This document shows, in pieces, positions 20,133-51,985 of a stretch of 64,000 bases of DNA. A model generated the notes under the pieces. It was not told the DNA's origin and searched no databases. It saw only the letters and a program-made list of their open reading frames with translations. Position numbers and translations under genes: made by a program. The stretch is from Bacillales bacterium (GTDB lineage: Bacteria; Bacillota_I; Bacilli_A; RF39; UBA660), in NCBI GenBank assembly GCA_016282375.1, contig JAEEKI010000012.1, positions 6,254 through 70,253 of the forward strand, given 5' to 3'. Positions within the stretch are counted from its first letter, which is position 1; each line of letters starts with the position of its first letter.

Positions 20133-20161
20133 TTTGACTTTTAATTAAAGATGTGATATCA
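20133..20161 (+). promoter_or_regulatory. Candidate sigma-A promoter for the 20197-24533 operon
   Basis: TTGACT (20133-20138), 17-nt spacer, TATCAT (20156-20161). About 35 nt upstream of the AAGGAGG-ATG. Confidence 0.45.
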
Positions 20162-20196
20162 TAGGGCGCGTTTATATCAAAAAGGAGGTTTTGATT

Positions 20197-21714
20197 ATGA
20201 AAACAAAGGAAGATGTACTAGCATTAATTCAAATATGTGAGAGTGAAGCTGAATACGCATTAACTCGTGATGACATTGAACTTACTGATGAAAGACGTGA
20301 AGGTCTTGAAAAAGTATTAAAAGCCATCAAAAACGAAAAAGAAAAATTTGAAAAAGTTCCGGAAGATGATCAAAGAGTAATTGACGGTTACTACAATATT
20401 TTTACTAACTTATTTACTGAATTAAAGAAAATTAATCAACCTACTCTTAATCATTCTACAGACATTCAAATTAAAGGTGAAAATCCTATCATCCCTCAAG
20501 ATGATGAAAATGGTATCATCCCAACTAATGATGAAAAGAAAGATATCATTGGTTTAGATGATGAAAATTTAGAAGAACCAAAAGATAATTCTAAAAAAAT
20601 GAAAGTTAAAAAAGTTATTCCTGAAGAAGAACAAACAGAAGAAACAAAAGAACAAAGGGATAGACTAACTAGAAATTTAAGAAGAATTTTCTATGTATTA
20701 GGTTCTGCTGCAGCTTTAGCTATTATCATTGCAACTATTAAATACTACGTTGATCATCCAAAAGATCAAAAGGCAAATGATTTACCTAGAACTACACAAT
20801 CTGATGTATTACCTACTAAAGATTCATCTAATATATACTATATTGAAGATGGTGCAAACGATGAATCAAAAGCCATCACTGAAGAATTACCTGAAGAAGT
20901 TCAAAAAGTATTCAAAATAGCTGATGTTGACATTAATGATTACAATCAACTTGTTACATATGCTACAGAAATCAATAATGAACTAAATGATACAAGAATC
21001 ACAATTGATGACATTATGTACGCTATTAGAATGGCTAACTGGGATAAACTTCAAGATAAGAGTTGTTTCACAGATCGTCAAGGTGTATGTCGTAGTACAT
21101 ACAATGCTGGTGTTGTTGCAACTAAATTAGGTTCAGATGCCATTGTTCAAAAAGATTTAAACAGTGATATCTTTATTACTGATCAACAAATGGCTGACAT
21201 CTTAGTTTGTGTAACTAATGGTAAACTAACACTTGCAGATTTTGAAAGTGCTAAAGTTGAAGACAGAGGTTATGACATCTATGCCGTAATAGACAGATGT
21301 GTTGCTGGCATGAACGAACATGTTGGTTCAACTGATGAAAATGACATTATTCATGATACTCATTATGCAAGAGTATTCAACGAAGTTGTTACAAGAGCTA
21401 CAATAAGCTTCTCAATAGTAAATTCTGACGAAGCTTTATTAAGTACTGTATATACACTATTAGGTACTTACAATGCTAATTCTAATCGTCTTATGGATTT
21501 AACTAAACAAGATGGTCCTATTTATGGTACCGGACCAAGAATTGATGGAAACTATGGTAATATCTGCGCACTTGAAGTAAATACTTTAGTTTACATTGAC
21601 AAACAAGACAAAAATGGTACACCAAACTTCATTGGTAACGAAAAAAATATTTTCTACTCTGGAATGATTGATGAAGTTATACTAAATCCAGAAAAAAGTA
21701 TGGGTTTAAATTAA
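20197..21714 (+). CDS. Hypothetical type-II membrane protein (acidic cytoplasmic N-terminus, one TM, ~310-aa outer domain)
   Basis: Start set at ATG 20197 (AAGGAGG 8 nt upstream). TM LGSAAALAIIIATIKYYV near residue 170. No family recognised. Confidence 0.7.
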   Translation: MKTKEDVLALIQICESEAEYALTRDDIELTDERREGLEKVLKAIKNEKEKFEKVPEDDQRVIDGYYNIFTNLFTELKKINQPTLNHSTDIQIKGENPIIPQDDENGIIPTNDEKKDIIGLDDENLEEPKDNSKKMKVKKVIPEEEQTEETKEQRDRLTRNLRRIFYVLGSAAALAIIIATIKYYVDHPKDQKANDLPRTTQSDVLPTKDSSNIYYIEDGANDESKAITEELPEEVQKVFKIADVDINDYNQLVTYATEINNELNDTRITIDDIMYAIRMANWDKLQDKSCFTDRQGVCRSTYNAGVVATKLGSDAIVQKDLNSDIFITDQQMADILVCVTNGKLTLADFESAKVEDRGYDIYAVIDRCVAGMNEHVGSTDENDIIHDTHYARVFNEVVTRATISFSIVNSDEALLSTVYTLLGTYNANSNRLMDLTKQDGPIYGTGPRIDGNYGNICALEVNTLVYIDKQDKNGTPNFIGNEKNIFYSGMIDEVILNPEKSMGLN

Positions 21715-21734
21715 AAAGTTAGGGGGTTTTGAAA

Positions 21735-24533
21735 ATGTATAAAAATAATAAAAATGGTAAAATATTAAATTTCCTTTTAGGCATTATTGCCCTATTCTTA
21801 ATTATTTTCATCATTGTATGGATAGTTAATAAAGGAAATAGCGCTACTAATACAACAGCTAATGAAGCAGAATTTAAATCAAGCTTAAATAACATCCAAG
21901 AAAAATCAAAAAGTTATTTTGCAAATGATTTACCTAATGACATTGGTGACACTAATGTATTAACTCTTCAAGATTTATACGATTTAAAATTAGTTGATAC
22001 CGTATCTTATGGTAAAACAGCATGTAATCCAGAAAACAGTTATTCTTCAATTACAAAAATCAACGCTAATGAATATAAAGTTAAAACTAACTTAGTATGT
22101 GGCGACAAAATTGATAATATAACTGAAAAGATTAGTGCTAATACTATCGTTGTTGAAAATGATGACGATAATAGTAAAGAAATTATCAATACTGACAAAG
22201 AAGACGTAACTGTTAATATTGATAAAAATGTTACTTCATCTGATGGTAAAACAGCTGATGTTGTAAATTGTATAGGGCCTATTTGTAAAATTGAAGAAGT
22301 TCCTACAAAATGTACAACTACTTATACATATGAATTCGTAAGAAGAAATGTATCTTGTCCTAGTGGTTATATTCTACAAGGTGGTACATGTGTTAAAGTT
22401 ACAAATAGTTCAATTGATGCAACTAAGAATTATTCTGATGAAACTACTAAAGTAGTTGATGCTAAAGTTAACGTTGGTGGTTCATACAGAGTATATACTG
22501 ATCCAATTGTTACACCAGGTACATCTACAAAAGTATGTAAAACTGGAAATCTTGCAGCTGACGGTTTCTGCTATGAATATAAAGATAAATTAACAAGTTC
22601 ATCTGATTCTTGTCCTGAAGGTTATACAAGAAATGGTAATGCTTGTTATAAATATACCGATTTAGTAACTGATACTTCTTATTCTTGTCCTGCTGGTTAT
22701 ACTAAAGAAGGTAATGCTTGTTATAAGTATACAGATTTAATTACTGATGCAACTTATTCTTGTCCTGATGGATATGCAAGAAATGGTAACTACTGCTATA
22801 AATACACTGATGTAATCGCAGATACTACTTATTCTTGTCCTTCTGGATATGAAAGAAATGGTAGTTATTGTTACAAATATACTAATTTAATTACCGATAC
22901 TACTTATTCTTGTCCTTCTGGATACGAAAGAAACGGTAATGCATGTTACAAATATACTGATCCAACTACTGATACTACTTACTCATGTCCTTCTGGATAT
23001 GAAAGAAATGGTAACTATTGTTACAAATATACTAATCCAACTACTGATACTACTTACTCATGTCCTTCTGGATATGAAAGAAATGGTAACTATTGTTACA
23101 AATATACTAACCCAACTACTGATACTACTTACTCATGTCCTTCTGGATATGAAAGAAATGGTAATTACTGCTACAAATATACTAACTTAATTACTGATAC
23201 TACAACATCTTGTCCTGAAAACTATATTAAGAGTGGTAATACTTGTTATAAAACTGCATCTCCTGTTAAGACTTACACTGCTTGGGGTAACCCAGTAAAT
23301 ACTTATCAAACATTTACACAAGAAACTGTTTATGAATATGAATATAGTAAAAAAGTATTAATTGGTACTGGTACAAAATATGGTCAAACAATTTATACTT
23401 ATGCTATTTATGAAAGAACTTCATACTATACTTGTGCAACTGGTACATTAGGATCTGATAATAGATGTTATATTTATACTAATCCAGTTACTTCATCAAC
23501 ATCTTACTGTCCTTCCGGTTATACTAAAGATGGCAATACTTGTTATATGAGAACTAATTTAACATCTTCTTCTACTACAACTTGTCCTTCTGGTTATACT
23601 AAAGATGGTAATACTTGTTATATGAGAACTAATTTAACATCTTCTTCTACTACAACTTGTCCTTCTGGTTATACTAAAGATGGTAATACTTGTTATATGA
23701 GAACTAACTTAACATCTTCTACTACTACAACTTGTCCTTCTGGTTATACAAAAAGTGGTAGTACATGTTATATGAAAACAGATCTAATTTCTGATACTAC
23801 ATCTTCTTGTCCATTTGGTTATACAAGAAATGGTAATACTTGTTATATGAGAACTGATCTTGTTTCTAGCACTTCATATTCTTGTCCTTCTGGTTATACT
23901 AAAGATGGTAATACTTGTTATAAGAAAGCTAATTTAATTACAGGTTCTACATCTTCTTGTCCTGAAGGTTATACAAGAAATGGTAATACATGCTATAAGA
24001 AAACTGATTTAGTATCTTCAACTACAACATCTTGTCCTACTGGATATACTAAGAGTGGTAGTACATGTTATAAGAAAACTGATTTAATCACTTCACATAC
24101 TGCATATTGTCCTGAAGGATATGCTGATAATGGTTCAAACTGTTATAAGAAAACTAACCCAACTGTTGAAACAACTCCAACTACTTATGCTTGTCCTTCT
24201 GGTTATACTAAGAGTGGTTCAGGTGCCAATATAAAATGTTACATTGATAAGACAAGTGCTGACACATATTATTGTGAAGATGCTAATGCCGTATTAAATG
24301 GTAAAAAATGTTATGTAACAATTCCTGCTCAATTTACTGGTTATTCTTGTCCTGCTGGTTATAAATTAAGTGGTAGTCTATGTCTAGCTACAACTACTGA
24401 AACTGCTTCTCCAATCTGGAGTAATGCTGAATACATTTATAGCACTGAAGATTATGTTGCAGGATACCAAAAAACTGGTGTAGCGAAATTCGTTACAAAA
24501 TGTACACCTATCGAAGAAATACATTATAAATAA
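21735..24533 (+). CDS. Membrane-anchored cysteine-repeat surface protein (about 24 copies of a 25-aa CPxGY-x5-C unit)
   Basis: Start at ATG 21735 (AGGGGG 8 nt upstream). N-terminal anchor ILNFLLGIIALFLIIFIIVWIV. Units such as SCPSGYERNGNYCYKYTNPTTDTTY repeat in two arrays. Confidence 0.8.
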   Translation: MYKNNKNGKILNFLLGIIALFLIIFIIVWIVNKGNSATNTTANEAEFKSSLNNIQEKSKSYFANDLPNDIGDTNVLTLQDLYDLKLVDTVSYGKTACNPENSYSSITKINANEYKVKTNLVCGDKIDNITEKISANTIVVENDDDNSKEIINTDKEDVTVNIDKNVTSSDGKTADVVNCIGPICKIEEVPTKCTTTYTYEFVRRNVSCPSGYILQGGTCVKVTNSSIDATKNYSDETTKVVDAKVNVGGSYRVYTDPIVTPGTSTKVCKTGNLAADGFCYEYKDKLTSSSDSCPEGYTRNGNACYKYTDLVTDTSYSCPAGYTKEGNACYKYTDLITDATYSCPDGYARNGNYCYKYTDVIADTTYSCPSGYERNGSYCYKYTNLITDTTYSCPSGYERNGNACYKYTDPTTDTTYSCPSGYERNGNYCYKYTNPTTDTTYSCPSGYERNGNYCYKYTNPTTDTTYSCPSGYERNGNYCYKYTNLITDTTTSCPENYIKSGNTCYKTASPVKTYTAWGNPVNTYQTFTQETVYEYEYSKKVLIGTGTKYGQTIYTYAIYERTSYYTCATGTLGSDNRCYIYTNPVTSSTSYCPSGYTKDGNTCYMRTNLTSSSTTTCPSGYTKDGNTCYMRTNLTSSSTTTCPSGYTKDGNTCYMRTNLTSSTTTTCPSGYTKSGSTCYMKTDLISDTTSSCPFGYTRNGNTCYMRTDLVSSTSYSCPSGYTKDGNTCYKKANLITGSTSSCPEGYTRNGNTCYKKTDLVSSTTTSCPTGYTKSGSTCYKKTDLITSHTAYCPEGYADNGSNCYKKTNPTVETTPTTYACPSGYTKSGSGANIKCYIDKTSADTYYCEDANAVLNGKKCYVTIPAQFTGYSCPAGYKLSGSLCLATTTETASPIWSNAEYIYSTEDYVAGYQKTGVAKFVTKCTPIEEIHYK
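22608..24190 (+). repeat. In-frame 75-bp tandem repeat arrays (~22608-23270 and ~23505-24190)
   Basis: Adjacent units are nearly identical at DNA level: 22983-23057 and 23058-23132 differ at 1 nt, and 23580-23654 and 23655-23729 differ at about 2 nt. Confidence 0.9.
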
Positions 24534-24536
24534 TTT

Positions 24537-24567
24537 AAAAAACTAAGGTATAAACCTTAGTTTTTTT
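24537..24567. terminator. Bidirectional intrinsic terminator between convergent genes
   Basis: AAAAAACTAAGGT-ATAA-ACCTTAGTTTTTTT: an 8-bp stem flanked by an A-run and a T-run. Confidence 0.8.
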
Positions 24568-32325: not shown

Positions 32326-32456
32326 AATCAACACTCTCCTATCTTTATTATGTCTTAATTATATCATAAAATTCTAAAAATCAATATGTTTTTTAAAAAA
32401 AAGTATTAATTGGTGTAAAGGTGTGTTATCATATTAATATAAGATGGTGGTTGAAA

Positions 32457-34016
32457 GTGAAAATCCTTGTAAAAATTAAAGATGATAAACTTTCATTTTT
32501 AAACAAGAAAAAGTTAAATGTTGAATATAAAAATATGTTAAATACTAATGTTATCAGCAATGATGAATTAGTTTTTAGTGATGAGTATATCCAAAAGAAT
32601 TATAAAATTCTTTCGGCTTTTTTTAGTGAATTAACTAACACTTATAATATTAACGTTTTGTCTTTTCAAACCATGGAAGTTGCTCTATTAATAATGCCTA
32701 TTTTTAATAAGATAAAAAATATTAATGCTATTTATTTTGATTCTGATGAAGTACTCCCCTATAAAGTATGTGAAAAGTTATTAAAATGTAATAATATTAC
32801 CTATATTAGTGCGGGATATATTCCTCAATATATGTTTGAATTACTAGACAAATATGATATTATTCCAGAATCACGAAATGAAATACTATATACTTCAGGT
32901 TTTATGGAACTTAACGGACTATCAACCTATTCTACTTTGTTTTATAAATATAGTGTTTTGTTAGATAGTCCTATCACAAACGAAGATTTAAATGACTTTA
33001 CAACTTTTTGTAAGATTAACAAATATCTTAAAAATGTCCATATTAATAAGCCAACTAAAATTAATCTAGAAAAGATTATCTTTATTCTTAAAGAATATCG
33101 CCATAAAAACATTCGAATCATTATTCATGGTGATACTATTGATGAAGAAGTAATTGAATATTTAAAAAAGTATAATAAATCTATTAAGAAAAAATATAAA
33201 ATATTAATTAAAATAAAATATAGTGAAAAATTTATCGAAGAAAATATTGTTAATGAAACCAATAATACTATTCTAAGAGCATGCGCACTCATTATGTTCT
33301 TCCTGGCTTTTGGATCAATTGGTATGGTCTTTATTGATAATTATAAATCCATCAAAGAAGTATCAAAAATTCAAAAGGCGATTGAAACATATATTGTCGC
33401 TTCGGATACCGAAGAAATAACTAAAGAATTACAAAAGCAAACCACTACACCTATTAAAAATAGTTATATAGCCGCTTTAATGAACATTAACTCAGATGCC
33501 GTTGGTTGGTTAAAAGTAAATAATACTAATATTGATTATGCAATTTTACAATCTGGCGATAATAGTTATTACCTAGAACACAATATTTATAAAGAAAAAG
33601 ATCCTAACGGATGGTTATTCTTAGATTATGAAAATAATGCAGACCGTGTAGATGATAATATTATTATATATGGACATAATCGTCTATTAAACGGAGTTAT
33701 GTTTGGAACACTAAATAAAGTATTATATAAAAGTTGGTACACCAATCCTGAAAATCAAATTATCAGATATGATACCCTTTATGGTTCATATGAATATCAA
33801 ATATTCTCTATCTATGTTATTCCAACCACAAATGATTATTTGAAAACAACTTATTTAAATGATGATGAAAAAATGGAATTCTTCAATCTTATTAAAAATC
33901 GTAGCATCTATAATTTTGATGTAGAATTAAACAATGATAGTCAAATTATTACTTTACAAACATGTCATGATGAAACAACAAAATTAGTTGTTCATGGTGT
34001 ATTAGTTAAAAGATAG
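32457..34016 (+). CDS. Class-B-sortase-like transpeptidase with a ~290-aa N-terminal cytoplasmic extension
   Basis: C-terminal domain NIDYAILQSGDNSYYLEHN...IIIYGHNRLLNGVMFGTL...IITLQTCHDETTK matches SrtB His and TxC motifs. TM helix ILRACALIMFFLAFGSIGMVFI precedes it. The start is uncertain: GTG 32457 after GGTGG, or the track start at 32421. Confidence 0.7.
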   Translation: MKILVKIKDDKLSFLNKKKLNVEYKNMLNTNVISNDELVFSDEYIQKNYKILSAFFSELTNTYNINVLSFQTMEVALLIMPIFNKIKNINAIYFDSDEVLPYKVCEKLLKCNNITYISAGYIPQYMFELLDKYDIIPESRNEILYTSGFMELNGLSTYSTLFYKYSVLLDSPITNEDLNDFTTFCKINKYLKNVHINKPTKINLEKIIFILKEYRHKNIRIIIHGDTIDEEVIEYLKKYNKSIKKKYKILIKIKYSEKFIEENIVNETNNTILRACALIMFFLAFGSIGMVFIDNYKSIKEVSKIQKAIETYIVASDTEEITKELQKQTTTPIKNSYIAALMNINSDAVGWLKVNNTNIDYAILQSGDNSYYLEHNIYKEKDPNGWLFLDYENNADRVDDNIIIYGHNRLLNGVMFGTLNKVLYKSWYTNPENQIIRYDTLYGSYEYQIFSIYVIPTTNDYLKTTYLNDDEKMEFFNLIKNRSIYNFDVELNNDSQIITLQTCHDETTKLVVHGVLVKR

Positions 34017-34422: not shown

Positions 34423-36246
34423 TTATTGTTGGTTTTCTTTTTTAGATTCTTCTTTATCTTCTTCAGAATCTTTTTCATTTTTATATTTATTTATTCCATA
34501 TGCTGATGCTGTAGCTGCACCCAATGCAATTCCGCCAATACCAATTGGAGTATCATCAAACTCAGATGTCTTAATTTCCTCAGTTGTAGTGATTTCTTCC
34601 TTTGGCTCACTACCTACTATACCAGAAAGTGGTGTAATATTAACAGATTCAATTCCTTGATTAGAAACTGCATCTAGACTACCAGGAACAGTCGTATCTG
34701 GCATTACTGGAATCTTAACCGTTGTTGGTTTAAGATCAAATTCATAAATTGGTTCTGCAATTACTTCATTTGGATCTACATATTCTGGTTGAGAATCAAT
34801 TACTGGTTCAGGATATGTAATGGTACCGCCACCACCAGGTAAATAAATTTCATCACTATAATTATTTGAATATCCAGTCGGTGTAATATCAATACTCTCA
34901 GGGCCTGCATTAATCACAGTTACATTTGGATCGGTTAATTGCTCATCTTCAGGTGGTAATTCTTCACTAGCCTCTCCTGTTTCAGCCGGTGGAGTCAAAT
35001 CCTCTTGCTCATCTTCAGATGCTAAATCATCGATATCTTCAGGTTCGTCTGTTATAATTTCTGAATTACCTTCCTCAGGTGGAACAAATACATTTTCTTC
35101 ATCCGAAGAATTATTGTCTTCTTCTTCGTTATGACTATCTTCTAAAGAATCTTCTACAGGAGGACGCCCTGATTCTACCACTGTATAATTATAATTAACC
35201 GCATCAGTAATATGACTACCATTAGCCCCCGTCATACTCGTCAACTCACCAATAAATGTCGCACCAGTAACACCACCATAAGCAATTACACTTACTGTTG
35301 TACCCCAGTCTACTTGAGATGAACTTATTTGATCTAACACACTATGAATAGCATCTTCATTAGTTAAATCAACCCATACAGCTTGCATCTCACCTTGTTC
35401 AGTATTGGTATATATAATGCCTGTTGTATATCCTTCTTCATCATTATGAAGATCATTTAATATTGTTGATAATTGATCAACAACAGTTTGCGTATATTTT
35501 TCAGTTTCATTTGTATCTGGTAAAACTGGTTCTAATTCTATTACTGGTTCTATAACAGTATCAACACTTGGTGTATAACTACCAGAATCACCACCAAAAG
35601 AACCATTATCTATATATCCATTATCACTGGTAATTGGTAACTCTACTCCACTATCACCAATAATTGGTAAAATTGGAGCAATAACTGGCTCAGTGGATGG
35701 ACTAGAATTATCAACAGTAACATAAGGATTTTCTCCAACATAACCACTAGGATAAGCTCCTTGATCATCCGAAGGCGCTGGTGGAAAACCAGTACCATCA
35801 AAACCTTCATTAGAACTCTCATAGTATGGCATTCCATAATATTCGCTAAGCCATCCAACTTCTCTTAGTATCATTTTTGCATAGTCGTCTAGGTCAGCTG
35901 CTGTTTTACGATACTCAGTCAATTGATCAGAAATACCAGTTTCACTATTTTTTAACAATTTTAGAGGTCCTTTTTTAACTCTTTCATAAAAATTAGGTGT
36001 TATCTCATCTAATAATTCATCGTATTCATTAGCATTGTAGTTACATGACTCTAGAGACTCAGCCATTTTCTCTAAATAGGTGCAAAACTGCATAAATTTT
36101 TCTTTATCCATTGATAAAGATGAACCACCACCACCAAAAGTAATCGAATTGCCACTAACACTTGGATAACTGTTAGCATCAAGTGCAAACGGATTACTCA
36201 CAGTGGAATCAGCTACAGCCGATGAAGAATTGTCAATATCTGTCAT
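34423..36246 (-). CDS. Orphan 607-aa protein: helical N-domain, long acidic Pro/Glu/Asp-rich region, C-terminal tail-anchor TM
   Basis: AAGGAGG SD. C-terminus PIGIGGIALGAATASAYGI followed by a K/E-rich tail. No family recognised. Lies in the T7SS-like operon. Confidence 0.7.
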   Translation of the reverse strand: MTDIDNSSSAVADSTVSNPFALDANSYPSVSGNSITFGGGGSSLSMDKEKFMQFCTYLEKMAESLESCNYNANEYDELLDEITPNFYERVKKGPLKLLKNSETGISDQLTEYRKTAADLDDYAKMILREVGWLSEYYGMPYYESSNEGFDGTGFPPAPSDDQGAYPSGYVGENPYVTVDNSSPSTEPVIAPILPIIGDSGVELPITSDNGYIDNGSFGGDSGSYTPSVDTVIEPVIELEPVLPDTNETEKYTQTVVDQLSTILNDLHNDEEGYTTGIIYTNTEQGEMQAVWVDLTNEDAIHSVLDQISSSQVDWGTTVSVIAYGGVTGATFIGELTSMTGANGSHITDAVNYNYTVVESGRPPVEDSLEDSHNEEEDNNSSDEENVFVPPEEGNSEIITDEPEDIDDLASEDEQEDLTPPAETGEASEELPPEDEQLTDPNVTVINAGPESIDITPTGYSNNYSDEIYLPGGGGTITYPEPVIDSQPEYVDPNEVIAEPIYEFDLKPTTVKIPVMPDTTVPGSLDAVSNQGIESVNITPLSGIVGSEPKEEITTTEEIKTSEFDDTPIGIGGIALGAATASAYGINKYKNEKDSEEDKEESKKENQQ

Positions 36247-36258
36247 TTTTACCTCCTT

Positions 36259-37800
36259 TTATTTTTTTGTTTTAATAGAAGTTCTATTACTTGTCAAATT
36301 ATCAGTTGAAATAAATACTGATCGATCTTCAGAACTATCAATACTTAAAGTACCTGCAACAGTATCAACTGCATAATATCCATCAACAGTACCATCATAT
36401 ACTAAATAGCATCCATTCGAACCACCCTTTATTGTCGTGTTAAATGCACTATAAGGTTTATCATATACGACCTCTGTTCCTGGAGCTATATAAATTATTT
36501 TTGGCAATTTTTCTTGACCAATACTTACTTTATCCCAATGAATTTCACTTTGAGCTGTTGCATTGCTTCGCAAGAAATTAGTATCATATACCCGATGTTC
36601 ATTATCACGATATTTGGCAAAAACAGTATCCGCCCAACCAACATTTTTGTTATTTTTAACATCACACGCTGTTGATCCGACACTATCAAAAGGAAAATCA
36701 GTAGCATATGTAACACTATAAGAATTTCCACTATAACAATATGTTTGAAGGAATTCCTCTCGACCAGGAATGTCTGTACCTCCATTACCATCATAAACTA
36801 CACGAGGAGCTAATGTACCACTACTATTCAAATAAAAAACTTGATCATATGGACTAGTTCCCTTTGTAAAATACATTGTACCGCGCGCATCTCGCATTAA
36901 GAAATAACAAGTCTCGCCATTTATAACCACTTGTGTACCACATGTAATGGTCTTTGGAGAATAAGTAAAATATTCTTCATAATTATCATAGTATGCCAAA
37001 TCAGCAGAACCTGCATTTTTTCTTCTTGTAAATTCACTTCTAGTCATTAAATTAGAGAATGCTTTATATGTGGCATCATCGTATTTATGGCTACTTGGTT
37101 TAACATTTTCACCATTGATACCCGCATTATTATCATAACTAGGTACATAATTGTCAGCTTGAAGGCGGCAAATACAATAGTCAACACCATATACACCATT
37201 TTGGTAGCCATAAGCAATATTATAATTTGGATATGGACAATTATTGGAATATTTTAAATATTTTGAAGATTCATTAAAATAAATAGAACCTACTCCGCCT
37301 TCAGGATCGGTTTTCTTAGCAATTCGAATCATTCCATCGCTTGTACGCTCAAAATCGGTATATCCATCAGATCTTAAGTTATCCTCCACAACAGAGCAAA
37401 ACTTTTTAAAATATTTATCGTACCAATCTTCTAAATCTTCTTTAACTTCTTTATCAAACATATCTAGTTTAGTTTCATCTAACGGCTGATTTGTCTGAAG
37501 AGTTAAATCAAAATTAGAACCAGTACCATTCAATTTAGAACGCAAATCATATAAATAATCTGCAAATGGGTTTCGACCATTAACTAACAAAGATTCTTCA
37601 CATATGTTAATACAACTGTCAAGATACTCAATTGCTTCATATAAACTATTTTTAGCTTTTGATTCAACATCCCAAGCAGTATTAGCCAATTGATTATGCG
37701 CTACATATTTGTCTTTTTCCAAGATATAAAATGGACGTTCCGTCGAAGACTGTGCTGCATCTTTCAATTGAATCAACGTCATACTGTCGTATCTACTCAC
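36259..37800 (-). CDS. Orphan 513-aa soluble protein (helical N-terminal ~150 aa plus unknown C-domain)
   Basis: GTG start 37800 after AAGGGTGA. No TM segments. First gene after the esx-pair terminator hairpin. Confidence 0.7.
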   Translation of the reverse strand: MSRYDSMTLIQLKDAAQSSTERPFYILEKDKYVAHNQLANTAWDVESKAKNSLYEAIEYLDSCINICEESLLVNGRNPFADYLYDLRSKLNGTGSNFDLTLQTNQPLDETKLDMFDKEVKEDLEDWYDKYFKKFCSVVEDNLRSDGYTDFERTSDGMIRIAKKTDPEGGVGSIYFNESSKYLKYSNNCPYPNYNIAYGYQNGVYGVDYCICRLQADNYVPSYDNNAGINGENVKPSSHKYDDATYKAFSNLMTRSEFTRRKNAGSADLAYYDNYEEYFTYSPKTITCGTQVVINGETCYFLMRDARGTMYFTKGTSPYDQVFYLNSSGTLAPRVVYDGNGGTDIPGREEFLQTYCYSGNSYSVTYATDFPFDSVGSTACDVKNNKNVGWADTVFAKYRDNEHRVYDTNFLRSNATAQSEIHWDKVSIGQEKLPKIIYIAPGTEVVYDKPYSAFNTTIKGGSNGCYLVYDGTVDGYYAVDTVAGTLSIDSSEDRSVFISTDNLTSNRTSIKTKK

Positions 37801-37914: not shown

Positions 37915-38220
37915 CTATGGATTTGTTGGTGTAGCATTGGCCATTTCTTGTTGAGCCTTTTTAAATTCGTTATTAGCATATTCAATTTGATCTTGAACAG
38001 TAAGAACGTGTCCAAGTTGACTTCTAAAACTATCAGTAAAATTGTACCAAGCTCTTATAAAGCCTTCTGCTGCAGCTCCAGTCCATTCACCAGATGTTCC
38101 GATTTTACCTTCAATATCAGCTGTTAAACGATTAAAATCTTCAGTCATTTTATCAGCTAAATCAAGAACATTTCTAGCTTTCTCTGTAGCAGCCGCATAA
38201 TTTATATACTCTCTATCCAT
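37915..38220 (-). CDS. WXG100-family protein (EsxB-like partner)
   Basis: 101 aa helical hairpin with a central W-x-G (SGEWTGAAAEGF). GGAAGGAG SD. Confidence 0.8.
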   Translation of the reverse strand: MDREYINYAAATEKARNVLDLADKMTEDFNRLTADIEGKIGTSGEWTGAAAEGFIRAWYNFTDSFRSQLGHVLTVQDQIEYANNEFKKAQQEMANATPTNP

Positions 38221-38241
38221 TATATTTATCTCCTTCCATTA

Positions 38242-38529
38242 TTACATATAGTTTTCAATATTTCTTGTCGTATCATCACCAATATCTGCAACAATACCAA
38301 GAGATTTTCCATAAGTAGATAATTCACCAGCAAATCCCTCAATACTTGCCTTATTAGTATAATAAGAGTTTTTGAAAGCATTATAAGTTCTACCATTCCA
38401 ATCGCTTTCTAAACCATTTACAAGACCTGTTAATTCCTCAATTTTTGCTAAATATTGCTCAGCAGCATCATAAATATCCTGAGCAGTATTACGAATTTTT
38501 TCTGTTACATAACTAATGTTATCGCTCAT
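38242..38529 (-). CDS. WXG100-family protein (EsxA-like)
   Basis: 95 aa with a central W-x-G (ESDWNGRTYNAF). GGGAGGTG SD. Directly downstream of esaB/essC. Confidence 0.85.
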   Translation of the reverse strand: MSDNISYVTEKIRNTAQDIYDAAEQYLAKIEELTGLVNGLESDWNGRTYNAFKNSYYTNKASIEGFAGELSTYGKSLGIVADIGDDTTRNIENYM

Positions 38530-38542
38530 TCTTTCACCTCCC

Positions 38543-38797
38543 TCACATTATAATCAATTTGGCTCCGTTTAAGATTCTATTTTCCTTTACGGTTTTATTG
38601 ACATCATAAACAGAACCGGTAAATCCATCAACTAATGATAGTTCTTCATTAATAGGAAAACTCCCTGAACTAATATCATTAATGGCTTTGTTTAATAAGA
38701 ATATAATTTCAATAGTCTTTTTATTGACCGGAATAAATACATTGTATTGTTCTTCAAGGGCAGGAACTATAACATCAACATTTACTTTATTTTTCAT
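38543..38797 (-). CDS. esaB: EsaB/YukD-like ubiquitin-fold T7SS protein
   Basis: 84 aa. The size, the VDVIVP...YNVFIPVNKKT...GAKLIIM beta-grasp pattern and the position next to essC all fit. Confidence 0.7.
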   Translation of the reverse strand: MKNKVNVDVIVPALEEQYNVFIPVNKKTIEIIFLLNKAINDISSGSFPINEELSLVDGFTGSVYDVNKTVKENRILNGAKLIIM

Positions 38798-38806
38798 AAT
38801 TCACAC

Positions 38807-41800
38807 CTATAACATTTCTTCTTCCGAATCATAACTTTCGACATATTTGAATAATGTTGGAATACCAGAAACAATGTTATAGCCAAAGTTATTTGGAATA
38901 TTATTAGGTAAAGATCGCGTACTAGCAAATAACTTGAATATACTTTGTTCTGCTAGACCATTACCAATCCAAATACCCCTTGTACTATTTACAATATCCT
39001 TATACCATCCATCATACTCTAGTTTCTTTAAGTTGTCAAACGTATCGACAATCACATAACTTATCTTTGATAACTTTTTCGAGTTCATTAAAGTACTGCC
39101 TACAAGGCTATCAAATTCAATACCAAGAATTGTTTTAATCTTGTTAATACCGGTAATAACCACTACCATATTGCCATAATTCTTTAAGGCATCATTATCA
39201 TACCCATTCTTAACGTAAATATCATTTAAACCATCAACAGTAGTTTTAAAACTAGCAAATACCTTATCAAAAGAACTAGTATACAATTTAGCATTTCCTG
39301 ATACATCACTTACTAATTTTTCGGCATCTATAACACAAACGACAGTATTTTTGATTGTTGACATTTCGTGCACGAACACGTTTACAAATTTTTGTAAACT
39401 ATTGATTTTAGTTGCAGATATCACAATAGAAGTTTGATTCTTTACATCTACTGAAAGAATATTTAAATTCTCTTTAGCAACACCAATTGGTACTTGATGA
39501 AGGCCCATAAATTCTGAAGATACAAACGAAGTAGTAACTTTATCTGGTAAAGTAGGAATTCTTTCTGCTTTCTTAGTATAAAGAGTATTTAAATTAGTAA
39601 TTGTTTTAGCAATAAAATCCGGTATTTCTGCTGTCTCTGTTGGATAGGCAGTTTGAAATTCATAAATACCCTCTCTTTTAGCAAGACCTCGACCAAATAT
39701 CTTACTTGGCAACACTTCACTTCTTCCCAATAATTGACGATAATCAAATTCATCGTTCATTTGTAAAACTAATTTTTCATTAAAGTTTTGAGCAACTTTC
39801 ATTCGAATATTACTTGCTGCACTAACAGTTGTTACAAACAATAATCCGTATTTTACACCTTCTCTTGTTAAGAGAATAATATCATCGGCAAAATCAGGAT
39901 ACAATTCATTAAATGATTCATAACCATTTATAATAGTAATAATAGTTGGTAACGTTTTACCACTGTTCTTACAATAATAATCATAACTTCCATTATAATC
40001 AGCAAATAGTTTTTTTCTATCAGCCATTTTCTTTTGCAGTAAACGGAATAATGTCATAAGTTGATCTTTGTCATCAGCTCCGACAATCCCACCAACATGT
40101 GGTGCTTTAGAATACATTCTCAAAGCTTCTGTACCAAAATCTAAAATATATATATTTATTTCATCTACACTATATGTAGTTATTAATGAATAAACAAGCG
40201 TAGACATTAAGTTTTCTTTTCCACTACCAATTGAACCATAAACTAATAAGTTTCCACTTTGAGATAGCGGTAAAGTTAATAGATTTTGTCTTTGTTCTTT
40301 TGGAGCATCATATTCACCTATAACAGGATTTATAACAAAAGGTACTTTGTTATAACGATATTTCTTTTTTAATACATCCACAAAGATATTAGCAGGAATT
40401 GGATCAAGCCATAATTGACGAACATCAATTTGTTCTTCATATCCCAAATCAGCTAGATAATTTAGAATACTCGTTACTTCTTCGCCTTTATGTACTCCTC
40501 TTAAATTTTGTTTATCATTATCAATACTTTTGATGCGTTCACCAATATTATCAACGAAATTAATAGAATTATCCACAATCTTCTTTCGCTTTTCAGATTC
40601 ATAATAAGGAGCTCCACACCAAGCAGATTGACCCTTAGCAAAGAACTCATTAAAGCCAACTTGAAGATAAAAACGACCAGTTTCTTTTAAGTAAGCGGCA
40701 TCCGGTGATTTAATCATATCATTACTATCTGACTTATCTTGAACTTTTAAACATACTCTAAATTTTGAGTTAGACCAAATCTGTTCATCAACAACACCAC
40801 TTGGTTTTTGAGTAGCTAAAATTAGATGGACACCTAATGAACGACCAATACGAGCCGTAGATATCAACTCATCCATAAACTCTGGTTGTTGAGCTTTTAA
40901 TTCTGCAAATTCATCAGATATAATAAACAAATGAGCAATTGGTTCTTTTACTTTACCCTCACGATATAATTTTTGATATTTATAAATATCAATCGTGCTT
41001 TCATTACAGGCATCACGAGCTTCATTAAATATTCTTTGCCGTCTTTTCAATTCACTTTGTAATGATGATAAACTCCGATTAATTTCATTTACATCAAGAT
41101 TGGTTATGGTACCTGCCAAATGTGGAAGTTTAACACCTGTTTCTTTGTTTTCAAAAGCTCCAGCTAAGCCACCACCTTTGTAGTCAATAAGTACAAATTG
41201 GACTTCATAAGGATTATAATTAACAGCCATTGACAATATATAAGTAATGATAAATTCAGATTTACCTGAACCAGTCATACCTGCGATAAGGCCATGGGGA
41301 CCATGCACCTTTTCATGTAAATCTATTTTAAATAATTCACCATTTTCATTAATACCTACCGGACAAGAAAGCGAAGTTGTCGGATCATTTTTTTGCCACC
41401 TGTTGTAAGCATTTAATTGCTCAACATTTCCTGCATTGTACATCTCTAAGAAGGTATATAAAGTTGGAAGTTCAAAAGCTTTATCGCGGGTTTCAATTGG
41501 TATATTAGAAGTAGCATATACATACCTATCAATGGTTTTGTTAATAAAGTCAGGAATAAATTCTTGCTTTTTATTAACTAATTCATTTTCGAAAATACCA
41601 CCAACCGAAGCATCAATACTAATGAATGTTGAACATTCACTTGGTAAAGAATTTAATTTATCAGTTAAATATAAAATGGTAAAACCATTAGATCGACCAG
41701 ATTTTAAGATATCATTAATTATACCTAATCTATTTGTTATATATACATCATCAGTAATAATGACATAATGTGGAAAAAATCTCGTCTTTTTTTCCGAATC

Positions 41801-43423
41801 TTGACCAGATCTATTTTGCCATTCATTTTCTAGTTCTGATGACACTCTAACAGCTTCATCAGAATCAGTAGCAAAATATCTAACAGTCTTATCATTATTC
41901 CAACAATACGGAGAATTTTTTAATTTTTCCCAATAAGAACGATTACTGTCATTAGTAAAGATGGCAATCTTTAATTCATCATATGAATGATATGCTAACA
42001 TCTGAAGAATCAATCCATCCGTATATCTTCTTAAAAGGTCAAATTTACCAATCAAAGCAGTGATATTTTTTTCTCGAAAATTCATGGTAACTGGAACATC
42101 GACAAGGGTATTATTCTTTTTAATAATGGAACGTAATTCTTCCTCTAAATCATCAGATTCCAATTCAAAATGTTCAGGAGCATAATTAATGTTTAATTTT
42201 GGTTCCACACTACCTATTCCTAAACGCAAATTTAGAAAATCATCATGTGTAACCTTTCTTTCCCAAAGATTTCTCTTACGATATAAAATAACATCGCCAA
42301 CATTATCTAAACTAACATTATTTTCAATTAAAACTCTTTTTTGATAAGTACATTCATCAATAATCTTTTTATCCAAGTCTTGTAAATAAGCATGGTATTT
42401 TTCTTGTCTTAACTTCTCTTTTTGCCGTTCTGTTTTCTTTTGATAAGCCCGATTTGCCATAGGAAAAACGAACATTGCAACAATCATACAAAAAGCTGTG
42501 ATTATTGAAGTAAAACTTTCTTTAAAGCTAGCCTCCCCAGAAAGAACTTTTGTTAAAGCCATGACACCTGTTATCGAAGAAGTCATTCCCATAATTACCA
42601 TCGGTCCAAGTGTCAAAATAATCGGGAAATCCTCACTTTCTTGCTTACGTGGAGGTCCATCAACATCAATATCTTTTGTTTCTAAAACATTACTAAAACG
42701 AGGCGGTCTAATAAAATAATCACTTTTTGAAAACAATTCTACACTTGCATCAGTTATTTTATCAACAGAGGCATAATCTAATTTATTAACTTTGTGACCA
42801 GCAAACTTATTAGTAACATATTTTACTTTATTTTCAACCGTACCTAGCATCAAAATGTTACCCACAATAGAAAAAGTTAAGCCTTCAAGAAAAACTACAT
42901 CGCCATTTTTTAAATAACAACTATTTGTAAGATAATTATTTACATAAACGTTCACACTAGGATTGAGATTTGTTAATCGACATATGCCATTTGAACGAAC
43001 AATTTCAATTTGATTATAATGAACATCAGGGTTTTCATAAGAAATATAATTGGGTTGTCCGCCTTCATTCGAGGAAGAATTACCAATGTAAAAAGTTAAA
43101 TCTCCAGTCTCAATAAAGTCTAACAAAAGCATTTTACTGTCGAATGTTTCACCAACAAAAACGCGGTATTTTTCACCACTTGCAACATCCACAAAATAAT
43201 AAAAATGATTTTCCACTAATTCGATATTATCGATAACTCTCCCATTATCTACAATTTTTATATCATCATTACTTTTGATAAACCATTTATTATTTAAGGC
43301 TTCAATATTAACTAGATTTTCATTATTCTCATTAGTTATCCAATAATTACCATAAATTCTTTGGGGTAATATGGTATTAACTAACTGGGTTTTTCCGATT
43401 AATCTAACTTTCACACTAAACAC
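38807..43423 (-). CDS. essC: T7SSb FtsK/SpoIIIE-family ATPase EssC/YukB
   Basis: 1538 aa. FHA-like N-terminus, two TM helices, three tandem FtsK-like modules. D1 has Walker A GMTGSGKSE and Walker B LFIISDEFAEL. The start may be GTG 43414. Confidence 0.93.
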   Translation of the reverse strand: MFSVKVRLIGKTQLVNTILPQRIYGNYWITNENNENLVNIEALNNKWFIKSNDDIKIVDNGRVIDNIELVENHFYYFVDVASGEKYRVFVGETFDSKMLLLDFIETGDLTFYIGNSSSNEGGQPNYISYENPDVHYNQIEIVRSNGICRLTNLNPSVNVYVNNYLTNSCYLKNGDVVFLEGLTFSIVGNILMLGTVENKVKYVTNKFAGHKVNKLDYASVDKITDASVELFSKSDYFIRPPRFSNVLETKDIDVDGPPRKQESEDFPIILTLGPMVIMGMTSSITGVMALTKVLSGEASFKESFTSIITAFCMIVAMFVFPMANRAYQKKTERQKEKLRQEKYHAYLQDLDKKIIDECTYQKRVLIENNVSLDNVGDVILYRKRNLWERKVTHDDFLNLRLGIGSVEPKLNINYAPEHFELESDDLEEELRSIIKKNNTLVDVPVTMNFREKNITALIGKFDLLRRYTDGLILQMLAYHSYDELKIAIFTNDSNRSYWEKLKNSPYCWNNDKTVRYFATDSDEAVRVSSELENEWQNRSGQDSEKKTRFFPHYVIITDDVYITNRLGIINDILKSGRSNGFTILYLTDKLNSLPSECSTFISIDASVGGIFENELVNKKQEFIPDFINKTIDRYVYATSNIPIETRDKAFELPTLYTFLEMYNAGNVEQLNAYNRWQKNDPTTSLSCPVGINENGELFKIDLHEKVHGPHGLIAGMTGSGKSEFIITYILSMAVNYNPYEVQFVLIDYKGGGLAGAFENKETGVKLPHLAGTITNLDVNEINRSLSSLQSELKRRQRIFNEARDACNESTIDIYKYQKLYREGKVKEPIAHLFIISDEFAELKAQQPEFMDELISTARIGRSLGVHLILATQKPSGVVDEQIWSNSKFRVCLKVQDKSDSNDMIKSPDAAYLKETGRFYLQVGFNEFFAKGQSAWCGAPYYESEKRKKIVDNSINFVDNIGERIKSIDNDKQNLRGVHKGEEVTSILNYLADLGYEEQIDVRQLWLDPIPANIFVDVLKKKYRYNKVPFVINPVIGEYDAPKEQRQNLLTLPLSQSGNLLVYGSIGSGKENLMSTLVYSLITTYSVDEINIYILDFGTEALRMYSKAPHVGGIVGADDKDQLMTLFRLLQKKMADRKKLFADYNGSYDYYCKNSGKTLPTIITIINGYESFNELYPDFADDIILLTREGVKYGLLFVTTVSAASNIRMKVAQNFNEKLVLQMNDEFDYRQLLGRSEVLPSKIFGRGLAKREGIYEFQTAYPTETAEIPDFIAKTITNLNTLYTKKAERIPTLPDKVTTSFVSSEFMGLHQVPIGVAKENLNILSVDVKNQTSIVISATKINSLQKFVNVFVHEMSTIKNTVVCVIDAEKLVSDVSGNAKLYTSSFDKVFASFKTTVDGLNDIYVKNGYDNDALKNYGNMVVVITGINKIKTILGIEFDSLVGSTLMNSKKLSKISYVIVDTFDNLKKLEYDGWYKDIVNSTRGIWIGNGLAEQSIFKLFASTRSLPNNIPNNFGYNIVSGIPTLFKYVESYDSEEEML

Positions 43424-43498: not shown

Positions 43499-44782
43499 TT
43501 AATTACTACAAGAATAATTTTTCGTATTTACATAGTATGAATTAATCGCCGTATAAGTCTCTGATAATGTTTCATTATTCTCCGCTTTTAACTGCTCATT
43601 ATCTAGTTTAGCTACTAAACTAATAGTCTTATTAATTGTATCCATGATAAAGTACCCGCTTCGACCATCGATTGTAATCCGATTGTTCTCGATATTATTT
43701 AGAGCATTTTCAAAAGCTAATTCATCATCATATTGATAATTATACAATCGTAACGAATAATCTAGATTTTTACGGTTTTCATCAAAAACAAAATAATCAG
43801 TTACACTATAACCATAATCAGTTTTATTTGTAGTCTTACTTGTGCAACTTAAACTCATCGCTGGTGCTTTGTCAACCACATATAAAACAGCATAACCAAG
43901 TTTTTCGCTTCCACTGGAATGACTAACAGAAATACTGATACCATATACGCCATTTGATTTAACATTATCTTTTAGCGAAATGTTATCGGTTAAGTATTCG
44001 TATTCATTACTTGTTAAAACAAACTCATCAATTTCTGGTATGTCATTAATTTTCTTATAAACAACTTTTGTAGCAAAACTTATCTCAGGAATAGATAAAA
44101 CTTCTATTTTCGCACTATGTTTAGTACTTCCACACTTTACGGAATAATTATATGTTCCTGGTGTACTAGCATCAATACTATCTAAACCCGTAATTAAACA
44201 AGAAGAAATGTCGATTTTAGAAAAATCTCCATAATCATTAATATTATGTGATATAGTATCACCTACATAGATAGTTACATCTTTCAATGTAAATATTTTA
44301 TGATTCTTTCTAGCTAATGATAAATAGAAATATAAACCATAAGCAACGCCACCCATTAAAAGTAAAATAATCACAGCAAAAATGACTTTCTTTAATGTAT
44401 CATGTGGTTTTTTATCAGGATTTGGCGTCGTACTTTTCTTCTTTTTACCTTTCTTATTCTTTTTATCATCTAAAGGCTCAATCGGTTGAGGTGTTGGTTC
44501 AGGTTGCACCCCAGGTGTTGGTTGCATTGGTTGAGTTTGAGGCGGTACTGCGCTCTCTTGTGGGCTTGGTACATTAGTAACAGCCCCAGTTTGATTGATG
44601 GCAGGAACAGAATTTGTACCTGAGGAATTAACACTAGCGTTTTCAGGATTTGCGGTATTCGCAGCATTGGCACCATCAGATGTTGGTTCAAGTAACGGCA
44701 AAAAGTCAAGGGTATCAATAACCTCGATAGTTGTTGGATCTGTGCCAATATCACTAATCTCATTTGGAAAAACGTTATTCAT
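43499..44782 (-). CDS. Orphan type-II membrane protein (Pro/Thr/Gln-rich disordered N-terminus, K-rich patch, one TM, ~260-aa outer domain)
   Basis: AAGGGGA SD. TM VIFAVIILLLMGGVAYGLYFYL near residue 150. No family recognised. Confidence 0.7.
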   Translation of the reverse strand: MNNVFPNEISDIGTDPTTIEVIDTLDFLPLLEPTSDGANAANTANPENASVNSSGTNSVPAINQTGAVTNVPSPQESAVPPQTQPMQPTPGVQPEPTPQPIEPLDDKKNKKGKKKKSTTPNPDKKPHDTLKKVIFAVIILLLMGGVAYGLYFYLSLARKNHKIFTLKDVTIYVGDTISHNINDYGDFSKIDISSCLITGLDSIDASTPGTYNYSVKCGSTKHSAKIEVLSIPEISFATKVVYKKINDIPEIDEFVLTSNEYEYLTDNISLKDNVKSNGVYGISISVSHSSGSEKLGYAVLYVVDKAPAMSLSCTSKTTNKTDYGYSVTDYFVFDENRKNLDYSLRLYNYQYDDELAFENALNNIENNRITIDGRSGYFIMDTINKTISLVAKLDNEQLKAENNETLSETYTAINSYYVNTKNYSCSN

Positions 44783-51136: not shown

Positions 51137-51985
51137 TTATCCATCTATTTTTTTTAAACTAGTAGTTTTTTCCAATTCTTCACTCTCTTTTTGATAATTA
51201 AGACTCATCCCAATTACAAAGAAATATGCAATAAAATAATACCAAATCATCAAGATACAAATACTCGTGAGCCCACCATACAAAGCTGAATAATTCGCTA
51301 AATGATTAATAAAATAAGAATAAATTTGTGTTGTAAGAATCCATGATATAGTGGTAAATAACGCACCATAATTTGTGTTATGTGACTTTATATAACGATC
51401 TGGAGCTAAAACATAAATCAATTTGATTAATATAAAAAGGAAAATCCACATGACAGGTCCTTTTAAATATTCATATATGGTAATAACGAGATTCGTTATT
51501 TTCTGATTCATATTAACTGTTTCTATTAAATTAACAATTTGATCACCAAAAATAACAATAATCAAAAGAAAAACAATAATCAAAACAAAGATAAAAGCCA
51601 TAATAATAGACTTAATTCTTCTTTCTAACCAACTACTATTCTCAATACCATAGATTTGGTTAGAAGTGACAATTACTGAAGCGGTACCATTACTAGCCAC
51701 ATAGTAGCCCATAATCAGTACAAAAGTCATCTTAATTCCGGCATTTGAAGCAGAAGAAACCCCTAATAAGAGATCTGCTATCTCATGAGAAAAAGCTTTT
51801 TCAAAAAAACTATGTAATATATCGGTAGATAAATTTAAAACCGAAGCCCCATAAGTAATAAGCGTCATCGTAGGAATTGTAGCCATAACCAGAAAAAAAG
51901 CCAGTTGTCCTGGAAGTAACATCATATCTGGCCTTTTAATAACTTTGAAGATTCTATTAAAAAATTTTTTAATCCTTTTTCTCAT
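51137..51985 (-). CDS. YihY/BrkB-family polytopic membrane protein
   Basis: 282 aa. MLLPGQLAFFLVMATIPTM and six hydrophobic helices are typical of YihY family proteins. Confidence 0.75.
   Translation of the reverse strand: MRKRIKKFFNRIFKVIKRPDMMLLPGQLAFFLVMATIPTMTLITYGASVLNLSTDILHSFFEKAFSHEIADLLLGVSSASNAGIKMTFVLIMGYYVASNGTASVIVTSNQIYGIENSSWLERRIKSIIMAFIFVLIIVFLLIIVIFGDQIVNLIETVNMNQKITNLVITIYEYLKGPVMWIFLFILIKLIYVLAPDRYIKSHNTNYGALFTTISWILTTQIYSYFINHLANYSALYGGLTSICILMIWYYFIAYFFVIGMSLNYQKESEELEKTTSLKKIDG

Follow-up and report, generated by a model that had tools for sequence, protein, structure and literature searches.

Paired genes in gut Bacilli encode a cysteine-rich surface protein with two matched repeat arrays and a bitopic membrane partner

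The DNA analyzed here is a 64-kb stretch (the window) of contig JAEEKI010000012.1 from a Bacillales bacterium, and it contains two adjacent genes that encode a bitopic membrane protein (the partner) and a Cys-rich repeat protein. Both genes are located on the + strand, whereas the surrounding region is otherwise transcribed from the - strand. The Cys-rich open reading frame (ORF) extends from a TTG codon at 21729 (934 aa) to position 24533 of the + strand. Translation most likely begins at the ATG at 21735, giving 932 aa, because the N-terminus read from there (MYKNNKNGKIL...) agrees with those of all close homologues and an AGGGGG ribosome-binding site lies 9 nt before it. A sequence-only reading of this DNA had already placed the start at 21735, which agrees with this assignment, but its length of 934 aa had been counted from the TTG; residues are numbered here on the 932-aa version. 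That reading also described the partner as a type-II membrane protein of 507 aa ending 14 nt upstream; the bitopic character holds, while the length is corrected to 505 aa and the gap to the ATG of the Cys-rich gene to 20 nt. The features of the pair are as follows (pLDDT is AlphaFold2's predicted local distance difference test):

20134–20162, + strand: promoter-like site, TTGACT, 17 nt, TGaTATCAT (extended -10); consensus scan with 10/12 matches plus TG, a pattern match only
20197–21714, + strand: partner gene, bitopic, 505 aa, starting at ATG 20197; product identical to database protein P0121
21735–24533, + strand: gene of the Cys-rich, putative stalk protein, 932 aa with 54 Cys
21762–21827, + strand: signal-anchor transmembrane segment, aa 10–31, from the sequence, the AlphaFold2 helix over residues 8–62 and conservation by region
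21840–22139, + strand: membrane-proximal N-domain, aa 36–135, with invariants in alignment A1; pLDDT 83–92
22140–22259, + strand: low-complexity acidic/Asn-rich linker, aa 136–175, poorly conserved
22260–22607, + strand: pre-array beta module, aa 176–267 (including the C208–C219 hairpin), and cap hairpin 1 (C268–C279)
22608–23249, + strand: array 1, nine 25-aa units, consensus SCPSGYxRNGNyCYKYTdlxTDTTY; units 4–8 recently expanded
23250–23432, + strand: central non-repeat beta module, aa 506–566, motifs W-G-N-P and YTYxIYxR; pLDDT 87–96
23433–23504, + strand: cap hairpin 2 (C567–C578), counterpart of cap hairpin 1
23505–24179, + strand: array 2, nine 25-aa units, consensus tCPSGYTKdGNTCYmrTnLxSSTTx; units 1–3 near-identical
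24180–24530, + strand: C-terminal region, aa 816–932; pLDDT 80–91
24537–24566, no strand assigned: 13-bp hairpin with T-runs on both strands, terminator-like, common to the convergent gene of a flavin adenine dinucleotide (FAD) protein

Cysteine accounts for 5.8% of the residues of the Cys-rich protein, against a median of 1.1% for the ORFs of the window. The chain contains 24 consecutive Cys pairs (C-x10-15-C), 22 with exactly 10 residues between the cysteines and two with longer loops. Eighteen of the hairpins are regular units with a strict period of 25 aa (75 nt) and constant Cys spacings of 11 and 14, nine in each array, and the six further hairpins are degenerate. Tandem Repeats Finder places period-75 arrays at 22606–23203 (84% matches) and 23508–24113 (79%). 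The insert between the arrays measures 62 residues between the flanking cysteines, or 74 from hairpin start to hairpin start. When the window is translated in all six frames, the motif C[PA]xG[YFW]...C appears 19 times, and because every occurrence falls within the Cys-rich ORF, it does not represent a chance pattern. The ORF is thus as real as the sequence-only reading had proposed, as are its two arrays of about nine units, the non-repeat insert that splits them and the degenerate hairpins outside. Its description of the 75-bp units as near-identical applies to three adjacent pairs, which differ by 1 nt (22983 versus 23058), 2 nt (23580 versus 23655) and 5 nt (23505 versus 23580), but not to the remaining adjacent pairs within the arrays, which differ by 8–21 of 75 nt.

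The Cys-rich protein begins with a Lys-rich cytoplasmic N-terminus followed by a hydrophobic segment of 22 residues. The AlphaFold2 model of the 932-aa protein displays a single helix over residues 8–62 and is all beta thereafter; its mean pLDDT is 72, its predicted template modeling score (pTM) is 0.33, and many linkers are of low confidence. The sequence and the model support a protein that is membrane-anchored by an uncleaved N-terminal helix with the remainder outside the cell, in line with the earlier proposal of a surface protein. The invariant residues of the family in the N-domain are P67, G71, L78, C97, S102, L120 and C122, and those of the central module are Y514, W517, N519, P520, Y524, E530, Y533, K540, Y554, Y556, Y559 and R561. 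The C-terminal region comprises the degenerate hairpins C820–C835, C847–C859 and C872–C883 and a conserved tail, SPIWSN...GYQKTG...C923.

The C-terminus, which reads ...KFVTKCTPIEEIHYK, has no sortase-anchor signal (LPXTG, hydrophobic stretch, charged tail), and the N-terminus, which reads MYKNNKNGKILNFLLG, has no match to the type IV pilin methylation motif (PF07963; G-F-T-L-x-E). A pilin-like N-domain, suggested by the long helix, the beta sheet and the Cys pair, was considered and dropped, as no test was in its favor. A Foldseek search of the full-length model against the PDB and BFVD revealed no match at E ≤0.001, a negative that is weakened by the length and flexibility of the model. The family profile, searched against PDB sequences, matched only the transmembrane/stalk helices of henipavirus G proteins (E 0.3).

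The partner combines a cytoplasmic three-helix N-domain (aa 1–80), an acidic disordered linker (aa 81–145), a transmembrane helix (aa 164–185; nt 20686–20751) that follows an Arg/Lys-rich stretch, another disordered linker and an ectodomain (aa 241–505) that is all-alpha in the AlphaFold2 model (mean pLDDT 64). The N-terminus is placed inside the cell because the Arg/Lys-rich stretch precedes the transmembrane helix. In both proteins the transmembrane region ranks with the best-conserved segments (76% identity in the Cys-rich protein, 59% in the partner), and the signal-anchor segment is the best-conserved part of the Cys-rich protein, the figure of 76% being identity in the close clade. No match to the partner was found in Pfam, NCBIfam, PADLOC or PHROGs, no J domain or other output domain was detected in it, and a Foldseek search of its model against the PDB revealed no match at E ≤0.001.

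The partner gene accompanies the Cys-rich gene throughout the family. In all five loci looked up individually, a gene of 345–490 aa ends about 20 nt upstream of the Cys-rich gene, and 45 of the 48 loci from the genome and metagenome scans have an upstream ORF ending no more than 60 nt away, so that a partner lies directly upstream in 50 of 53 scorable loci. The exceptions among the 48 include one contig without upstream sequence and another with an ORF that overlaps the called start. Homology to a profile of the partner was tested for 26 upstream genes and detected in 23, with E from 6e-257 to 3e-35. For the partners in three distant-clade loci (L006, L007 and L008), the bitopic layout is retained, but sequence similarity could not be detected. 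The upstream bitopic gene of L006 (5641–6921) starts with a DnaJ domain (34.4 bits), and that of L007 (6610–7980) has a DnaJ-like N-terminus (24 bits, below the cut-off) in which the HPD motif was not seen. These domains hint at a link to chaperones on the cytoplasmic side.

Several lines of evidence point to transcription of the pair as one unit: the conserved gene order; the single promoter-like site, followed by a strong ribosome-binding site (AAAGGAGG, 20181–20188), and the single terminator-like hairpin that enclose both genes; and RNA-derived contigs of a human-gut relative, which in three runs cover both genes and span their junction, although metatranscriptomes can contain DNA. This relative is transcribed in gut and wastewater metatranscriptomes, and none of the RNA runs contained the Cys-rich gene of the window's own species. 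Both the co-transcription and the co-occurrence of the partner raised by the sequence-only reading are thereby supported, homology itself having been shown for 23 of the upstream genes.

A protein search revealed 211 relatives of the Cys-rich protein, nearly all from uncultured gut Bacillota or Bacilli and named 'hypothetical'. The family forms more than 200 clusters; a look-up of cluster names gave 'hypothetical' for all members. The 932-aa protein itself was not found in the large protein collection, whereas its partner is present there (P0121). The cluster of P0015 (90% identity, 2,080 members) mixes 674-aa Cys-rich proteins with partner proteins of 461–470 aa, and this mixture may stem from fused gene calls that bridge both kinds.

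The family has a common plan. It opens with an N-terminal anchor and an N-domain in which C97 and C122 do not vary across 56 sequences, and continues through a low-complexity linker and a beta module with a cap hairpin to array 1. There follow a W-G-N-P module of about 60 aa, a second cap hairpin, array 2, and a tail with YYCE... and SPIWSN...GYQKTG. The protein in the window has the anchor and the Cys-pair N-domain, the order array, W-G-N-P module, array and YYCE tail, and a bitopic partner gene ending 10–25 nt upstream, the features by which the family is defined here. Neither protein reaches the cut-off in Pfam, NCBIfam, PADLOC (defense) or PHROGs (phage).

A scan of species-representative genomes (alignment A2) identified 17 loci, with labels including Bacilli bacterium, Mycoplasma sp. 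CAG:472, Mollicutes bacterium and uncultured Mycoplasma sp. L009, a sheep-rumen metagenome-assembled genome (Bacilli bacterium RGIG7022), is the closest genome; its flanks share 76–82% nt identity and the gene order with the window, and its orthologue has 978 aa and 10+10 units. The order ruvB-ruvA, the pair and two FAD-protein genes, a chromosomal core position, is kept in close relatives. No relative of the Cys-rich protein was found on viral contigs. Bovine gut metagenomes contain low-depth short fragments identical to the window, none of which spans the arrays. We conclude that the two genes form a genuine envelope module, conserved and without annotation, of uncultured Bacilli of the gut or rumen. 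Other genes of the window specify a spore coat protein of the CotZ family, a protein with a sortase domain and an ATPase like those of type VII secretion; the host is therefore walled and spore-forming, with a single membrane, and relatives carry GerA and CotJB.

The repeat unit resembles a known structural element. In Pfam, the protein in the window has sub-threshold matches to cEGF, named after epidermal growth factor (EGF) (PF12662; 16.0 bits, cut-off 26.6), EGF_Tme5 (17 bits) and YdjO (26.9 bits, cut-off 27). The YdjO match was dismissed, as it covers just 22 residues of one hairpin. Four relatives exceed the cEGF cut-off, with 48.2 (P0034), 30.2 (P0066), 32.3 (P0209) and 34.6 bits (P0153). 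Searched against the PDB, the unit profile matches weakly the N-terminal hairpin of C-type lectins, EGF5 of thrombomodulin and an insect stress-response peptide, the best sequence matches being the hairpins of long-form C-type lectins (E 6e-5 to 0.1). In all three types of structure the two cysteines close a beta-hairpin. By analogy with these solved structures, it is a well-founded inference that each unit would be a beta-hairpin with a single closing disulfide, C(i)–C(i+11), like the C-terminal half of an EGF domain.

The disulfide-stapled hairpin and the likeness to EGF-type CPxGY motifs put forward from the sequence thus gain support, the former by analogy alone. In the profile and structure searches that it had suggested, the unit resembles the EGF hairpin, but no curated family or fold library identifies either protein. 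Unit, cEGF and thrombomodulin EGF5 have in common the motif C-P-x-G-[YFW]-x(5,6)-C-[YF] and, putatively in the unit, a one-disulfide beta-hairpin. A canonical EGF domain has six Cys and three disulfides in about 40 residues, whereas the unit has two Cys in 25 residues and lacks the N-terminal major sheet; moreover, its units are joined by Thr/Ser-rich linkers and its host is bacterial. The C-type lectin domains of PLA2R, DEC-205 and snake-venom lectins share the motif CPxGWxxxxxxCY; there it is a disulfide-closed hairpin that is single and part of a larger fold, in contrast to the tandem hairpins of the window, and the likeness is probably convergent. The repeat is a bacterial version of a known hairpin and not a new fold class.

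A three-unit profile (A4), searched against 1.84 billion representative proteins, matched 1,703 clusters at E ≤0.001 and 595 at E ≤1e-10. The matched proteins include giants with up to 304 Cys, TraN proteins, an immunoglobulin-domain giant, a Ser/Thr kinase with an ectodomain built of hairpin units (P0165), and a pilin-like protein that carries both hairpin units and the N-terminal methylation motif (P0249). Judged from these matches, the unit is a widespread bacterial extracellular module mostly missed by curated libraries.

Two groups of known proteins are of interest for comparison. The SasG/Aap G5-E and Rib/alpha-like repeat stalks are rod-like successions of tandem small beta units whose copy number varies between strains and determines the reach of a functional module; they are Cys-free, with a C-terminal LPXTG wall anchor, a single array and no partner gene. 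The protein in the window would likewise be a rod-like spacer of tandem small beta units, but it is Cys-rich and has two arrays and a partner gene.

The second group is TraN (PF06986), which mediates outer-membrane mating-pair stabilization in F-type conjugation. Long TraN homologues (P0110, P0134, P0135, P0136 and P0153) share hairpin units of 23–25 aa and two near-equal arrays around a central module (9/9, 9/10, 10/11 and 13/11 in TraN-like proteins, 9+9 in the window). In AlphaFold models of TraN, the N-terminal beta domain is extended and runs up to a central 'tip', the C-terminal domain folds back onto the N-terminal domain, and all cysteines are able to form disulfides (PMC9246713). There are also differences. 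The C-terminal domain of TraN (PF06986) has no match in the window protein at E up to 1, against 246 bits in P0110. In the protein of the window, an N-terminal membrane anchor takes the place of the signal peptide and outer-membrane location; its gene is chromosomal and syntenic, not plasmid-borne, and is always accompanied by that of a bitopic partner; and its central module is conserved, while the tip of TraN is hypervariable.

A comparison of individual units between the window (W) and L009 (L) reveals how the arrays have changed. Units at the edges are orthologous (W493–L511, 77%; W792–L835, 80%; W343–L336, 81%), whereas interior units are closest to units of their own genome (W418–W443, 99%; W617–W642, 97%) and reach 73–81% across genomes. 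Since edges and interior behave in this manner, the arrays grew by separate local duplications in each lineage and were not homogenized as wholes. Unit number also differs between strains: in human-gut relatives, L048 matches L026 at 100% identity but lacks exactly one 25-aa unit of array 2, with breakpoints in the shared GYTQSGN, and L050, at 94.6% identity, carries the same one-unit deletion. These observations support the recent expansion that had been predicted and show, in a human-gut relative, the predicted length variation between strains. Most loci of this human-gut group keep 674 aa, so that unit number varies, but not freely.

The constraint becomes apparent when the two arrays are compared. 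Hairpins were counted before and after the central module in 155 family proteins, and 111 of them fall on a diagonal on which the number after the insert equals the number before plus one (n, n+1). Once the constant non-array hairpins are subtracted, the diagonal states range from 1+1 to 10+10 array units. Independent contrasts, computed on a neighbor-joining tree of the non-repeat ends, give a correlation of 0.68 between the unit numbers of the two arrays, a value that no permutation out of 10,000 attained. Among 20 sister pairs with different unit numbers, 15 show the same change in both arrays. The period of the units is also equal in both arrays (23/23, 25/25, 28/28 and 35/35). The two arrays of the window share 60–70% nt identity, and each is closer to the orthologous array in L009 than to the other.

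Because one duplication cannot extend both arrays and the arrays are not recent copies of each other, their equal unit number must be selected. The only geometry we could find that would require equal arrays is one in which the arrays pack against each other in antiparallel fashion, side by side, and the chain turns at the central module, and from the covariation of the unit numbers we infer this arrangement. Among unrelated proteins that have the unit in exactly two arrays (n=46, many of them TraN-like), 32 have arrays within one unit of each other and 13 have equal arrays. P0110, P0134–P0136, P0140, P0148 and P0153, among others, display near-equal arrays around a central module, and in P0140 the succession of unit lengths is identical in the two arrays. 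As a structural clue, the matched-array rule is new and open to test.

Taken together, these data lead us to propose a fold-back, two-legged stalk that, with its partner, would present a central tip for contact or sensing, a reading that falls just short of probable. The exposed part would be a chain of small one-disulfide beta-hairpins, by analogy with the solved structures, with array 1 running outward, the central module as the distal tip and array 2 running back, which would bring the C-terminal region beside the N-domain at the membrane. The role of the central module as tip is suggested by the matched arrays that surround it. The resulting stalk would be stiff, with a length set by unit number and altered by the in-frame gain or loss of 75-nt units; the 9+9 units of the window lineage would perhaps be enough to span a Gram-positive wall. 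The partner may bind through the conserved transmembrane helices and its ectodomain, linking the stalk to the cytoplasm, and the stalk would most likely hold out its conserved tip at a defined distance from the membrane, either to make contact with another surface or as a sensor.

A number of observations weigh against this proposal. The AlphaFold2 model has a pTM of 0.33 and many low-confidence linkers. About a quarter of the family proteins lie off the diagonal, partly through problems of parsing in divergent clades, and a natural one-unit mismatch exists, the (7,7) state of L048 and L050. The positions of recent duplications show no simple correspondence of register between the two arrays. 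The central module is conserved to the same degree as the rest of the domains, in contrast to the hypervariable tip of TraN; a role in receptor specificity is therefore not indicated, and any ligand of the tip would be conserved. Finally, 27 disulfides outside the cell would be unusual for an anaerobic member of the Bacillota. Exclusion of Cys from exported proteins has been reported for aerobic Firmicutes (PMC2823432), and no oxidoreductase gene lies next to the operon; L008, with a thioredoxin-like gene two genes downstream, is the only locus with such a gene.

One alternative is a linear rod in which the arrays follow one another and carry the C-terminal region, instead of the central module, away from the cell, as in staphylococcal and streptococcal repeat stalks, and in which the equal arrays have another cause, for example a central module held at mid-length. 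Tandem small domains are usually linear, and the lack of confident global packing in the AlphaFold2 model and the out-of-register duplications agree with a rod. We nonetheless regard it as unlikely, as it gives no reason for arrays that co-vary in unit number and period and leaves the same rule in unrelated TraN-like proteins unexplained. A transmembrane sensor, in which the stalk and the partner ectodomain would detect an external cue (contact, or the state of the wall) and the N-domain of the partner would signal to factors such as DnaK, is compatible with the stalk and does not exclude it. It draws on the conserved cytoplasmic N-domain and transmembrane helix of the partner, on the DnaJ and DnaJ-like domains of L006 and L007 and on the kinase P0165 with its hairpin ectodomain, but the partner in the window has no detectable J domain or other output domain and no regulator gene is linked to the pair; as an account of this locus, it is quite unlikely.

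Cys-rich proteins are typical of spore coats and crusts, the organism forms spores, and the CotZ-family gene of the window and GerA and CotJB of relatives could set the pair in a sporulation context, as components of a resistant envelope layer cross-linked through Cys. We consider this improbable, since the promoter-like site is of the housekeeping sigma type, both proteins are membrane-anchored with large domains outside the cell, a relative is transcribed in gut and wastewater metatranscriptomes, and neither protein matches a coat family. The hairpin unit and two-array plan shared with TraN would also suit a mating-pair stabilizer of a mobile element in a Gram-positive host; the missing TraN domain, the conserved chromosomal site between ruvAB and housekeeping genes in several species, and the lack of transfer genes nearby and of relatives on viral contigs make such a counterpart very improbable. 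Equally remote is an assembly artefact, in which near-identical 75-nt units were mis-joined into long arrays by short-read metagenome assembly. Some units do differ by just 1–2 nt and no array-spanning reads were found, but most units are distinguishable at 8–21 nt apart, the independent sheep-rumen genome has a 10+10 orthologue, and the reading frame and both array ends are intact.

Elsewhere in the window, a 100-aa WXG100-like ORF (20 bits, below the cut-off) adjoins a 1537-aa EssC-like ATPase with two FtsK/SpoIIIE domains (37915–43423, - strand; neighbors at 34423–37800 and 43499–44782), which suggests a type VII secretion-like locus; the adjoining ORFs of 427, 513 and 607 aa have no Pfam match. 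On the + strand, the minority strand, 32421–34013 encodes a 531-aa protein with a C-terminal sortase domain and about 360 N-terminal residues without assignment. A 670-aa protein with a C-terminal GGDEF diguanylate cyclase domain is encoded at 51969–53981 (- strand). The sole Rfam match, n00280 (a Clostridioides difficile small RNA; 58916–59016, - strand), probably reflects conserved coding sequence, as it lies inside a UvrD/PcrA-type helicase gene (58617–60707). At 61588–62565 (+ strand) lies the gene of a PD-(D/E)XK 'transposase'-family protein ending in GIEQ/GIEK four-residue repeats. The CotZ-family protein (62629–63072, - strand) has 147 aa, 12.9% Cys and a Spore-coat_CotZ score of 40 bits (cut-off 24), the match from which spore formation by the organism is deduced; small Cys-rich ORFs continue after its gene toward the end of the window.

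The pair represents a conserved, transcribed and unannotated envelope module among uncultured Bacilli of gut and rumen, a large group in which one 90%-identity cluster alone has 2,080 members. It shows that minimal EGF-like hairpins are an extracellular component in common use among bacteria, one that curated libraries mostly overlook. The matched-array rule yields a simple and testable prediction of structure that extends to long TraN proteins, the determinants of species specificity in conjugation. A complement of 27 putative extracellular disulfides in an anaerobe of the Bacillota challenges the view that the phylum avoids Cys in exported proteins. In a broader and more tentative sense, the fold-back, two-legged stalk of single-disulfide hairpins might be a general bacterial design, shared by TraN-type stabilizers and the Bacilli module, with a length tuned by the matched gain and loss of units. 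In the Bacilli, stalk and bitopic partner would then constitute a previously unrecognized contact or sensing apparatus that relies on extensive extracellular disulfides in strict anaerobes.

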